Assembly (NCBI GenBank): GCA_963514005.1
Contig: OY740805.1
Location: 42,036,001 to 42,100,000, forward strand
DNA from: Raja brachyura
Lineage: Eukaryota
DNA: 64,000 bases
Direction of reading: 5' to 3'
Below the pieces are notes generated by a model. That model made no database searches. It was given only the letters and a program-made list of their open reading frames with translations, and was not told where the DNA came from. Positions 10,987-32,334 of the stretch are shown piece after piece. The position numbers and the translations under genes were made by a program. How positions within the stretch are numbered: position 1 is the first letter of the stretch; each line of letters opens with the position of its first letter.

Positions 10987-11044
10987 ATGGGAGTGGTTCA
11001 CTGCGCTGTGTTGTTACTGCACGGGATCCTCAGCTCAGTCCACG
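10987..11044 (+). CDS. BTN-like coding exon 1, signal peptide
   Basis: [20 protein letters not shown], donor G|GTAATG. Confidence 0.8.
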
Positions 11045-29800: not shown

Positions 29801-32334
29801 CTTAAGACAGTGGAATTGATTGTAGACTTTAGGAGAGCTCCCACTCCCCTCGCCCCACTCACCATCAACAACACCACAGTCACATCTGTGAAGTATTTTA
29901 AGTTCCTGGGAACCATCATCTCCAAGGACCTTAAGTGGGGGGCTGCCATCGACTCCACAGTCAAAAAGGCACAACAGATGATTTACTTCCTACGGCAGCT
30001 GAGGAAGCACAATCTGCCACAGGCAATGAAGGTCCAATTCTACACGGCCATCGTAGTCTGTCCTCATCTTCTCCATCATGGTCTGGTTTGGCTCAGCCAC
30101 CAAGTACGACATGTGGAGGCTGCAGCGAATCATCCGATCAGCAGAGAAGGTTCTTGGCTGTAACCTTCCCTCCATTGATAAACTGTACACTGCAAGGGCC
30201 AGGAAGCGAGTGGGCAGGATCATCTCTGACCCCTCTCACCCTGGCCACAAACTCTTTGAATCATTTCCCTCTGGAAGGCGACTACGGACAGTTTTTATCC
30301 ACGTTGCTCTACTCAACAACCAAAAATCTGTCGCCTTCTCCCTTCGATCTGGTATTTTTGTTGGTTCACATGCTTGATCAATGGTGTTTTATCATTAATA
30401 TTTTATTATTATTAATGTTTAGTGTTTTCTGAGATTCATAACTGTCACTGTCATGTTGTTATTTGTTGGCGGAGCACCAAGGCAAATTCCTTGTATGTGA
30501 ATACTTGGCCAATAAACTTACTTACTTACTTAGATTCCTAACTTACTGAACAACAAACATCTTGAACCCTGCACAATTGCTGTGCTAACAATCTGAGTTT
30601 AGCAAAAAGCATTTGGGCCAGAGAAGTCAACAGGCCTTTGGCTTGGAAAGTGAATATTCATCACAGTGTGTGTGCATATGTGTGTGAATGAGTGTGTGTA
30701 TGTGTGTGAGATTGTATGCGTGTGAATTAGTGTGTGTATGTGTAAATTAGTGTGTGTATGCGTGTGTGTGTGTATGTGTGTTTGTATGTATCTGTGTTTG
30801 TGTGTGTGAATGAGTGTGTGTGAGTGTGTGTGTGAATGAGTGTGTGTATGTGACTATGTGTGAATGAGTGTCTGTGTATTTGTGTGTGTGAATGAGTGTC
30901 TGTGTATTTGTGTGTGTATGTGTGAATGAATGTGTGGGTGTATGTGTGTGTGTGGGTGTATGTGTGTGTGAATGAGTATGTGTGTGCGAATGAGTATGTG
31001 TGTGCAAATGAGTATGTGTGTGCGAATGAGTATGTGTGTGCGAATGAGTGTGTGTGTGTGAATGAGTGTGTGTGTGCGAATGAGTGTGTGCGAATGAGTG
31101 TGTGTGCGAATGAGTGTGTGTGCGAATGAGTGTGTGTGTGAATGAGTATGTGTGTGCGAATGAGTGTGTGTGTGCGAATGAGTGTGTGTGTGCGAATGAG
31201 TGTGTGTGTGTGAATGAGTATGTGTGTGCGAATGAGTGTGTGTGCGAATGAGTGTGTGTGCGAATGAGTGTGTGTGCGAATGAGTGTGTGTGCGAATGAG
31301 TATGTGTGTGCGAATGAGTATGTGTGTGCGAATGAGTATGTGTGTGCGAATGAGTGTGTGTGAATGAGTATGTGTGTGTGAATATATGTGTGTGTGTGTG
31401 TGTGTGTGTGAATGTGGGTGGGTGGGTCTCTATGTAGATACACACACACACACACACATATGTAAGGTATTTTCCTGCACCTTCCCCAGTCTCTTTCTAC
31501 GGAGGGAGCTGAGGGAAGCATGAGAATGAAGAAGTGTCCAGACCCTAGACGTGTTCTGTCATTTCCTTACACATGTGTTCCCTGACCCGCGGACTTACTT
31601 CAGCAGTTTGTTTTTATTTCTCACCGTGCACCCGGTTCCCGTCCACTTCCACCCCAATTTGGAAACTCCGTGACAGATGTGTGTTGTCCACCCGATGTTG
31701 TTGGGGTGAAACCCCGGGCAAGGTGTCAGTTGTCCGCCCGCCTGTGCCCGAGTCTCCCCCCGACCCCCGGGGTCTCTGTGATTCTCTGCTTCTCCCCCCA
31801 GTCTCCGTCACCCTGGATGTGGAAACAGCGCATGCGCAGCTCGAGGTGTCTGAGGATCGGAAGAGGGTGAGATGCACCGGGATGGAGAGGAGTCTCCCTG
31901 ACACCGGGAAGAGGTTTACAGACTGGCAGTGTGTGCTGGGATCGGAGGGATTCACATCGGGGAGACATTACTGGGAGGTGGAGGTGGCGGGGAGTTGGTT
32001 CTGGAGTCTGGGAGTCGCCGCAGAGTCTGTGGAGAGCAAGAGATGGGTCACACTGACCCCGGAGACTGGAGTCTGGATCATCTGGCGGTGGGATGACGGG
32101 TTTGATGCATTCACCTCCCCTCGATCCCCTCTCCCCGCCCGTCCCATCCCCGGGAGGGTGGGAGTTTATCTCAGTTACGAGTCCGGGACAGTTGCATTTT
32201 ACGACGCGGACACCAAGTCCCATCTCCACACCTTCACTGGGAACACATTCACGGACAAACTTTATCCTTACTTCGGGTCTTGGGTTACGTACGACTGGAT
32301 GACAATCTGCTCCGGTTCTGTTCCGGGTGAGTAA
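10987..32334 (+). CDS. Butyrophilin/BTNL-like membrane protein, 8 coding exons (10987-11044, 12262-12609, 13725-14006, 14207-14320, 15238-15270, 18205-18231, 25112-25138, 31802-32334), 473 aa
   Basis: All introns are GT-AG and phase 1. Exon lengths 58+348+282+114+33+27+27+533 = 1422 bp form one open frame. Domain order leader-IgV-IgC-TM-short juxtamembrane exons-B30.2 is the butyrophilin architecture. Extra mini-exons could hide in N runs. Confidence 0.88.
11522..12196 (-). mobile_element. CR1 LINE 3' fragment (intronic)
   Basis: [14 protein letters not shown] and [29 protein letters not shown]. Confidence 0.9.
12262..12609 (+). CDS. BTN-like coding exon 2, IgV domain
   Basis: 348 bp. [71 protein letters not shown]| and |GTGAGT. 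Confidence 0.95.
13725..14006 (+). CDS. BTN-like coding exon 3, IgC domain
   Basis: 282 bp. [57 protein letters not shown]. Confidence 0.95.
14207..14320 (+). CDS. BTN-like coding exon 4, transmembrane
   Basis: [44 protein letters not shown]| and |GTACG. Confidence 0.9.
15238..15270 (+). CDS. BTN-like coding exon 5, juxtamembrane mini-exon
   Basis: TTTCTCCTTCCAG|...|GTAAGA, 33 bp, [11 protein letters not shown]. Confidence 0.75.
15311..15483 (+). mobile_element. tRNA-derived SINE (related copies at about 28870-29046 minus and 39120-39400 plus)
   Basis: A-box-like TGGCGC and B box GGTTCGATCC, followed by a conserved body GTCTGTGTGGAGTT..GCTCCGGTTTCCTCCCACA. Confidence 0.75.
15705..17211. 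repeat. 43-bp minisatellite, about 35 copies, expanded inside a Rex/Babar-type LINE 3' remnant (about 15490-17400)
   Basis: Unit TAGATGTGGCCCAGTCCCACACAGACCACACTCCCCACCATTG. The last unit continues into LINE coding-like sequence (..CCCACCATTGACTCCATCTACAC..). Confidence 0.93.
18205..18231 (+). CDS. BTN-like coding exon 6, mini-exon
   Basis: TTCCTTTTTAG|...|GTATGT, 27 bp, GLWTPLVES. Confidence 0.65.
18467..18882 (-). mobile_element. L2-clade LINE 3' fragment
   Basis: [51 protein letters not shown], with a (TTGAC)n tail. Confidence 0.8.
18885..23840 (+). repeat. Tandem array of polypurine (GA-rich) tracts alternating with four copies of the same CR1 3' end (about 19520, 20665, 21460, 22908)
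   Basis: All four CR1 pieces start at the same junction GAGGGCATGACATGAGAAT, and the flanking GA tracts share motifs. Confidence 0.9.
23841..24719 (+). mobile_element. Non-coding GC-rich retroposon with (ACTTG)n tail, related to 61650-62589
   Basis: Short tandem tail. Shares TTGTGCCTTCCACCACA..GCTGTGCTGGATGTTTGGG with the 62410-62465 region. Confidence 0.5.
25112..25138 (+). CDS. BTN-like coding exon 7, pre-B30.2 mini-exon
   Basis: TGTTTTCAG|...|GTAAGA, 27 bp, EWKRIRGHE, the W-basic type exon that precedes B30.2 in butyrophilins. Confidence 0.8.
25675..27180 (+). mobile_element. Degenerate CR1 LINE (endonuclease and RT fragments)
   Basis: [57 protein letters not shown]. Confidence 0.88.
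27300..28860 (-). mobile_element. Rex1/Babar-type LINE, RT region
   Basis: [55 protein letters not shown]; frameshifted. Confidence 0.9.
29055..29725 (+). mobile_element. CR1 LINE 3' fragment
   Basis: [25 protein letters not shown]... Confidence 0.85.
29745..30532 (+). mobile_element. Rex/Babar-type LINE 3' fragment with (TTAC)n tail
   Basis: [42 protein letters not shown]. Confidence 0.85.
30666..31458. repeat. TG-rich compound microsatellite (GAATGAGT(GT)n units)
   Basis: Directly visible. Confidence 0.95.
31802..32334 (+). CDS. BTN-like coding exon 8, B30.2 (PRY/SPRY) domain
   Basis: [72 protein letters not shown], open to TAA 32334. Confidence 0.93.

Follow-up and report, generated by a model that had tools for sequence, protein, structure and literature searches.

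A 64,000-nucleotide stretch of the Raja brachyura genome (NCBI GenBank assembly GCA_963514005.1, contig OY740805.1, here C25, positions 42,036,001 to 42,100,000 of the forward strand), referred to at its full length as the window, carries a skate butyrophilin (BTN) gene that is one of five clade-A paralogues on the chromosome that carries the class I genes of the major histocompatibility complex (MHC). The key point is the split behaviour of its two halves, a conserved ectodomain and a cytoplasmic domain that evolves in the manner of TRIM proteins; comparisons within this genome and across chondrichthyan databases show the ectodomain carried on a fast-changing B30.2 exon that is shared with TRIM genes. 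An initial annotation of the window had recognised the butyrophilin and proposed it as a candidate ancient gamma-delta T cell receptor (TCR) ligand or inside-out sensor; it missed that the B30.2 exon is diversifying and common to the TRIM array, a finding that alters the likely function.

Histories of the ectodomain and the B30.2 exon

Separate phylogenies of the two halves disagree (the initial annotation had suggested them, as a check, for IgV, IgC and B30.2): the ectodomain falls in chondrichthyan BTN clade A, but the B30.2 domain groups instead with skate TRIMs. A quick ectodomain tree of 102 rows resolved clade A (59 rows, including the window gene) and clade B (34 rows), each with a Shimodaira–Hasegawa-like approximate likelihood ratio (SH-aLRT) support of 99 and each containing sharks and batoids. 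A search with the window B30.2 exon returned mostly skate TRIMs at 78-86% identity, and the B30.2 trees (131 rows, and careful trees of 40 and 44 rows) group by taxon, not by ectodomain clade; 13 isoform duplicates were dropped before tree building, and 59 TRIM rows were thinned for the 131-row tree. The window B30.2 sits in a nine-row skate set of 5 BTN-A and 4 TRIM sequences (support 97/97). Stingray BTN-A B30.2 joins stingray TRIMs (100/98), a catshark TRIM B30.2 joins catshark BTNs (95/88), and the B30.2s of clades A and B pair by genus in Heptranchias, Heterodontus, Cetorhinus, Scyliorhinus and Stegostoma. In four shark clade-A models the B30.2 is of a markedly different type and falls with a sawfish TRIM in the 131-row tree, two of the four doing so with support of 100/96 in the careful 40-row tree.

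The approximately unbiased (AU) test rejected a single clade for all BTN B30.2s (p 1.65e-48) and for the clade-A B30.2s (p 4.7e-4). Best identities across 190 rows point the same way. For skate BTN-A B30.2 they are 0.85 with TRIMs of skates and 0.76 with BTN-A from outside the skates; for stingray BTN-A B30.2 the corresponding values are 0.86 and 0.77. Judged from these trees, the B30.2 exon does not follow the history of the ectodomain and groups with TRIMs of its own taxon or with BTNs of the other clade. Whole-protein butyrophilin trees, with their ‘class-specific’ groups, can thus be driven by B30.2 homogenisation. A scenario in which batoid TRIMs captured a BTN B30.2 a single time was also weighed and set aside as unproven, since the same B30.2 type occurs in a catshark TRIM and in two TRIM-like segments of carpet sharks.

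The sharing is also apparent within this one genome, which holds at least 150 RING-B-box exons of the A33/NF7-like TRIM type (486 candidates, 150 scored), 112 of them by hand count on C25 at 18.5-41.5 Mb. Candidate B30.2 exons in the genome number 543. For 25 of the 29 further B30.2 loci that were fetched, the match to the window is confined to a tract of intron and exon that runs from 31643-31745 to 32335-32337 and ends at the stop codon; in the remaining four, which are of the BTN-cluster type, similarity continues into the 3' flank. A RING exon lies 6-22 kb upstream on the same strand, as judged by eye, in 15 of the 25 tract-only loci, and the other 10, for which no upstream RING match was paired by eye, were left out of the substitution analysis. 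Synonymous divergence (dS) between the window B30.2 exon and the 15 TRIM-linked copies is 0.027-0.092, similar to that between the A paralogues (0.02-0.092). Relative to the intact clade-B gene, dS is 0.18 in B30.2, 2.58 in the IgV exon and 1.49 in the IgC exon.

The two halves also differ in their amino-acid change. The ratio of nonsynonymous to synonymous differences per site (pN/pS) between the window B30.2 and eight BTN-type copies is 1.6-5.5 (Fisher p<0.05 in 6/8), and it is 1.1-3.3 against the 15 TRIM-linked copies; for IgV and IgC it is 0.20-0.98 in all eight comparisons. The variable B30.2 sites cluster at nine positions aligned to W350, H351, Y352, H378, W391, K393, R412, R418 and R469 of human BTN3A1, which hold 3.3 residue types vs 1.7 elsewhere among nine BTN copies (p 1e-5) and 4.9 vs 1.6 among the TRIMs.

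The eight-exon gene and its surroundings

The eight coding exons join into 1422 bp that encode 473 aa and a stop codon in an intact frame, and all seven introns are GT-AG and of phase 1 (Table 1). The 473-aa model is real and that of the initial annotation exact: its 348-bp IgV exon, 282-bp IgC exon, phase-1 mini-exons and B30.2 exon were borne out by splice sites, Pfam profiles and a scan for mini-exons. Pfam scores are 45.4 bits for V-set (cut-off 26), 80.4 for C2-set_3 ‘BTN3A2-like IgC’ (PF22705; cut-off 27), 67.5 for PRY (cut-off 27.5) and 70.1 for SPRY (cut-off 26.3), and hydropathy of the transmembrane (TM) segment peaks at 2.65 at aa 238. An AG acceptor about 20 bp 5' of the first coding exon part implies a putative 5' untranslated exon further upstream. 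The TM and B30.2 exons lie 17.4 kb apart, and a scan of this interval for open, phase-1 exons of 18-45 bp with strict splice signals, a filter written with the model already in view, gave three candidates, exactly the three modelled, each with a homologue match.

Table 1. Features of the window butyrophilin gene and its shared B30.2 tract, in window coordinates.
Feature	Position	Strand	Size and evidence
First coding exon part, signal peptide aa 1-20	10987..11044	+	58 bp; joint 11043-12261 in 4/4 runs; kept in 5 paralogues
IgV exon	12262..12609	+	348 bp; C43-C117
BTN-type IgC exon	13725..14006	+	282 bp; C157-C211
Transmembrane exon	14207..14320	+	114 bp; in frame, 6-9 bp shorter than the TM exons of paralogues
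Juxtamembrane mini-exon 1	15238..15270	+	33 bp; transcript joint, mini-exon scan and homologues
Juxtamembrane mini-exon 2, Pro-containing optional cassette	18205..18231	+	27 bp; 2/5 clade-A paralogues, 11 homologue models
Juxtamembrane mini-exon 3	25112..25138	+	27 bp; 5/5 paralogues
B30.2 (PRY-SPRY) exon including stop	31802..32334	+	533 bp; Pfam PRY and SPRY
Tract common to TRIM-array B30.2 loci	31663..32337	+	~140 bp of intron plus exon, ends at stop; 85-92.5% nt identity

Contigs were drawn from four public runs of related organisms, presumed to be RNA. Intron 1 is skipped exactly in all four runs, the intron between the TM exon and mini-exon 1 in contigs of two, and one contig also connects the end of the IgC exon to a TM exon of paralogue type. 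Joints supported in this way reach position 15270; those further 3' rest on genomic order and homologue models. Nine masked, unreadable stretches lie in the window, five of them within the introns of the gene. The stalk introns are enlarged by a 43/86-bp minisatellite (15701-17212) and a GA-rich segment (18800-23850) with four repeated LINE-end units.

The window gene has the marks of a butyrophilin, namely a B7-type IgV, a BTN-type IgC, a single TM segment with very short heptad exons, a C-terminal B30.2 domain and a location on the MHC chromosome. The IgC exon has the 282-bp size of mammalian BTN IgC exons, and 34 of the 36 Protein Data Bank (PDB) matches of its domain are BTN or BTNL proteins, with CD276 ranking last. 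The best single-domain PDB matches of the IgV are MOG, BTNL2 and BTN2A1; these similarity ranks, which come without a tree rooted on B7 proteins, favour BTN/MOG, yet VTCN1 ties BTN2A1 at 62.5 bits. Macaque BTN3A exon 2 spans 348 positions, equal to the IgV exon (PMC6790196; here and below, statements citing PMC-numbered papers refer to the available parts of their text, PMC10751288 excepted), and a TM segment followed by very short ‘heptad’ exons belongs to the definition of butyrophilins (PMC6790196, PMC8813856). The host is a skate, as the annotation's assignment to a probable cartilaginous fish had anticipated: the IgV is 81-91% identical to Amblyraja, Leucoraja and Rhinoraja proteins named butyrophilin-like by NCBI, and nearly all of the 120 matches listed in a profile search are BTN-like models of sharks and rays. 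The architecture IgV-IgC-B30.2 recurs in 68 chondrichthyan database models after removal of isoforms. Across 664 kb around the gene no RING, B-box or coiled-coil exon of an A33/NF7-like TRIM was detected; only the B30.2 exon is common to the two families.

The stalk, which the initial annotation had singled out as short and Pro-containing (GLWTPLVES), proved not to be unusual. It measures 39 aa vs about 70 in human BTN3A3, and human BTNL3 and BTNL8, which cover the query with fewer residues, are equally short overall. The three mini-exons of the sawfish orthologue align gap-free with the last 32 residues of the BTN3A3 stalk, a match that is suggestive only, because HMMER avoids gaps. Models of sharks and rays either have or lack the Pro-containing exon, its homologue models span sharks and skates alike, and in the white shark it sets isoform models apart from one another. 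Heptad skipping has also been described in macaque BTN3A (PMC6790196). On this comparative evidence the exon is an old optional spacer cassette, not a distinguishing oddity. An AlphaFold2 model of the sawfish (Pristis) orthologue P0129 gave confident domains; in stalk residues 269-294 the predicted local distance difference test score is below 50, so that a break of the helix where the Pro exon lies cannot be judged from it. A fold search with this model returned matches that confirm a butyrophilin and nothing further.

Five clade-A genes lie within the 664 kb, each with signal, IgV, IgC, TM, mini-exon 1, mini-exon 3 and B30.2 exons in order on one strand, together with one intact clade-B gene and many clade-B remnants. 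Every clade-A gene has a clade-B gene or remnant head-to-head with it, 5.4-16.7 kb off. Seven of the 12 MHC_I matches are on C25 at 18.1-24.1 Mb, ~18 Mb from the gene, and more than 100 A33/NF7-like TRIM genes occupy 18.5-41.5 Mb of this MHC class I contig. An orphan clade-A TM exon at window 6172-6294 (+) stands without IgV or IgC exons, as do similar orphans at four other cluster sites. Broken B30.2 fragments were noted at 7388-7607 (-) and at 37589-37810 (+); the latter, ~5 kb past the last exon, recurs after three other BTN-type B30.2 exons. An IgV exon at C25:42134121-42134468 is inverted relative to the strand of its clade-B gene, and more distant IgC exons (30-43% identity) at C25:40.15-41.67 Mb and at 87.9-88.0 Mb of contig C8 are candidates for further BTN or B7-family genes. 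Elsewhere in the window, a 70-bp tandem array (2109-3655) precedes a short UBA-like coding fragment at 3659-3830 (+) (UBA_4, 22 bits), which presumably resembles the TDP2 N-terminus. A large inverted duplication (43901-53399 vs 55971-64000, 87-98% identical) carries retroelement pieces and a CAMSAP CKK-domain fragment (57475-57822, 90.7 bits), possibly a captured gene piece.

Readings of the cytoplasmic domain

We favour, with a probability of about 0.5, a model in which the window protein, anchored in the membrane, would sense variable cytosolic ligands in the manner of TRIMs and relay to a conserved ectodomain. Such a role is likely because the gene shares its B30.2 exon, variable at the ligand face, with TRIM genes on its own chromosome, and what this butyrophilin senses is likely to be changing intracellular invaders, not the small phosphate metabolites detected by its human relatives. 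Exon shuffling or gene conversion would have exchanged the B30.2 exon among BTN-A, BTN-B and A33/NF7-like TRIM genes, on repeated occasions and independently in skates, in stingrays and in several lineages of sharks. Like the PRY-SPRY domains of TRIMs, the B30.2 domain would bind cytosolic ligands that vary; by analogy with antiviral TRIMs these are probably stress proteins or proteins of pathogens. Given the head-to-head A/B layout, in which only one B gene is intact, the window protein probably pairs with a clade-B butyrophilin, and lymphocytes, possibly gamma-delta T cells, could then read an A/B ectodomain complex that receives the signal inside-out by way of the stalk.

Several observations weigh against this sensor model or limit the exchange on which it draws. 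Only 6 of the 15 window-TRIM pN/pS comparisons reach p<0.05, the pN/pS tests are pairwise, non-independent and uncorrected, and the B30.2 exon has a GC content at third codon positions of 0.68, which may depress dS. Four of the five head-to-head clade-B partners are broken, including that of the window gene, where no IgV is detectable. The identities of the sawfish set show no taxon effect (2 rows, 0.78 vs 0.78), and another B30.2 type is borne by most of the shark TRIMs sampled; exchange is not universal, because some subclades retain their own B30.2 lineage in the 131-row tree. The query that found the TRIM rows was the B30.2 of the window gene itself, an ascertainment effect, the rows of the careful 40- and 44-row trees were hand-picked after viewing the 131-row tree, and the database models, predicted automatically, may contain wrongly joined exons. 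Within this genome, one origin of the BTN-A B30.2 was not rejected (p-AU 0.17, on a DNA tree from which 37 variable codons of 176 were dropped). Repeated exchange, which was also considered within skates, is therefore shown between lineages and not within skates.

The variation might also be a passenger. BTN and TRIM copies vary at the same sites (Spearman 0.60), a further point against the sensor model, because the BTN B30.2 variation could then be passively imported. The protein would in that case be a B7-like co-regulator or adhesion ligand that acts through its conserved ectodomain on a TCR or non-TCR partner, with B30.2 as a structural or trafficking module whose variation was copied by gene conversion from the TRIM genes, the real targets of selection. 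TRIM donors outnumber BTNs more than tenfold on the contig, several relatives are annotated without B30.2, and butyrophilins persist in squamates that lack the gamma-delta TCR (PMC12841164). Yet scaffold codons place six BTN-type copies in a subclade of their own (89/94), these six differ from the window gene with pN/pS of 2.1-5.5, and the B30.2 frame is open in all five clade-A genes; we consider the passenger explanation possible but doubtful.

The initial proposal, here taken as a direct and ancient ligand of the gamma-delta TCR or an inside-out sensor of phosphoantigen, of the human BTN3A1/BTN2A1 or BTNL3/8 kind, seems unlikely. It has the shared architecture, the best overall PDB matches (BTN3A3, BTN3A1, BTN2A1, BTNL8 and BTNL3), the stalk-end alignment and the MHC-chromosome location on its side. 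Its premise that cartilaginous fish have gamma-delta cells holds at the gene level, since a TCR-gamma locus at 73.95-74.03 Mb of contig C4 comprises seven open V segments with signals resembling recombination signal sequences and three J segments within 120 kb, beside a MENTAL-domain gene and with no constant region located. The clade-A IgV C-C' segment is near-invariant (K60 52/53, G62 51/53, L63 53/53, P66 53/53), as expected for a fixed partner. The binding residues speak otherwise. The basic phosphoantigen pocket of BTN3A1 comprises H351, H378, K393, R412, R418 and R469 (PMC4303140), which align to W, S, T, D, R and G in the window protein, so that one of six is kept (R404 for R418), and these sites vary between paralogues. 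V-gamma-9 binding by BTN2A1 needs R65, R124, Y126 and E135 of its CFG face (PMC7083227). By an equal-length IgV match with a presumed numbering offset, which sets position 125 on C117 and position 66 on W58, these fall on Q57, T116, S118 and A127, none of them kept. Clade B, not A, retains R (33/33), F/Y (24/33) and E (21/33) at three of the contact sites, which may simply be ancestral BTN residues. The lost contacts lower the likelihood of TCR binding without excluding it, because such contacts co-evolve by lineage. When the window IgV was modelled in a complex with a single skate V-gamma, the one among the seven that most resembles V-gamma-9, the prediction scored 0.03, evidence neither way.

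That the gene model itself is mis-joined, the expressed protein stopping after the mini-exons as in BTN3A2 and the B30.2 exon being an orphan or part of another gene, is very improbable. Transcript-supported joins do end at 15270, orphan B30.2 and TM exons are scattered through the cluster and some database models end early, but exon order and strand are kept in 5/5 paralogues, the 664 kb lack TRIM exons, the 68 chondrichthyan models share the arrangement, and the B30.2 acceptor is intact with its frame open and under selection.

Should the variation be functional, the sensor model would place the beginnings of inside-out signalling by butyrophilins in the recognition of variable ligands of a pathogen-like kind; this would help to explain both the persistence of butyrophilins without gamma-delta T cells and the origin of the BTN3A1 pocket. 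More speculatively, and in our view improbably when taken as a whole, a two-clade elasmobranch system could predate the shark-ray split, with clade A as a surface-anchored sensor sampling TRIM-array specificities through B30.2, clade B as a BTN2A1-like TCR-contact face, and A/B complexes that alert gamma-delta T cells to infection inside the cell; the phosphoantigen sensing of mammals would on this view be an ancestral, TRIM-fed inside-out alarm that froze into one special case. Five A genes, the one intact B gene of the region read and seven V-gamma segments make the system open to direct test.

Relation to known systems

Butyrophilins occur in all jawed vertebrates tested, four cartilaginous fishes included, with MHC linkage in three of these and variable heptad numbers (PMC12841164), and the Ig-SPRY fusion has been dated to gnathostomes (PMC11788884). 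The initial annotation was right about the architecture but overstated the significance of a complete chondrichthyan butyrophilin: the skate gene is a new member of a known family, not new in kind, because such genes had already been annotated and published. Models named butyrophilin subfamily 1 member A1/3A-like (Rhinoraja P0047, Amblyraja P0122, Pristis P0129) share its clade, architecture and mini-exons, and other sharks and rays its MHC-chromosome linkage (PMC12841164). New here is the TRIM-shared, fast-changing B30.2 on a conserved butyrophilin ectodomain in skates. A literature search, with subscription papers outside its scope, found no report of B30.2 shuffling, conversion or selection for shark or ray butyrophilins; the available part of PMC12841164 treats whole proteins and does not mention two ancient clades, a TRIM-shared B30.2 or selection, and a shark MHC paper (PMC10751288) leaves BTN, TRIM and B30.2 unmentioned.

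Human BTN3A1/BTN3A3, BTN2A1 and BTNL3/BTNL8 have the same layout of IgV, IgC, TM, heptad mini-exons and B30.2 with the stalk end in register, and the sawfish orthologue model reaches 34% identity over 484 columns. No orthology with these human proteins is shown; the skate protein has a shorter stalk than BTN3A3, lacks the basic pocket and carries a variable B30.2, whereas the human domain is conserved.

The closest parallels for the B30.2 exon itself lie outside the butyrophilins. In zebrafish NLR-B30.2 genes (PMC4852459) and finTRIMs (PMC2657112) a B30.2 exon has likewise been shuffled between families, homogenised across groups and positively selected in its ligand loops, and conversion with selection was read there as pathogen recognition. 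Those proteins are cytosolic, whereas the skate exon sits on a type I membrane protein of the Ig superfamily, at ~92% nt identity to TRIM exons. A squamate harbiTRIM locus (PMC12262214, preprint) brings TRIMs, butyrophilins and orphan PRY-SPRY exons together with recombination among PRY-SPRY domains. That locus is small and non-MHC, and its account is centred on TRIMs, whereas the skate array is chromosome-scale, lies on the MHC chromosome and shows a pattern repeated across elasmobranchs.

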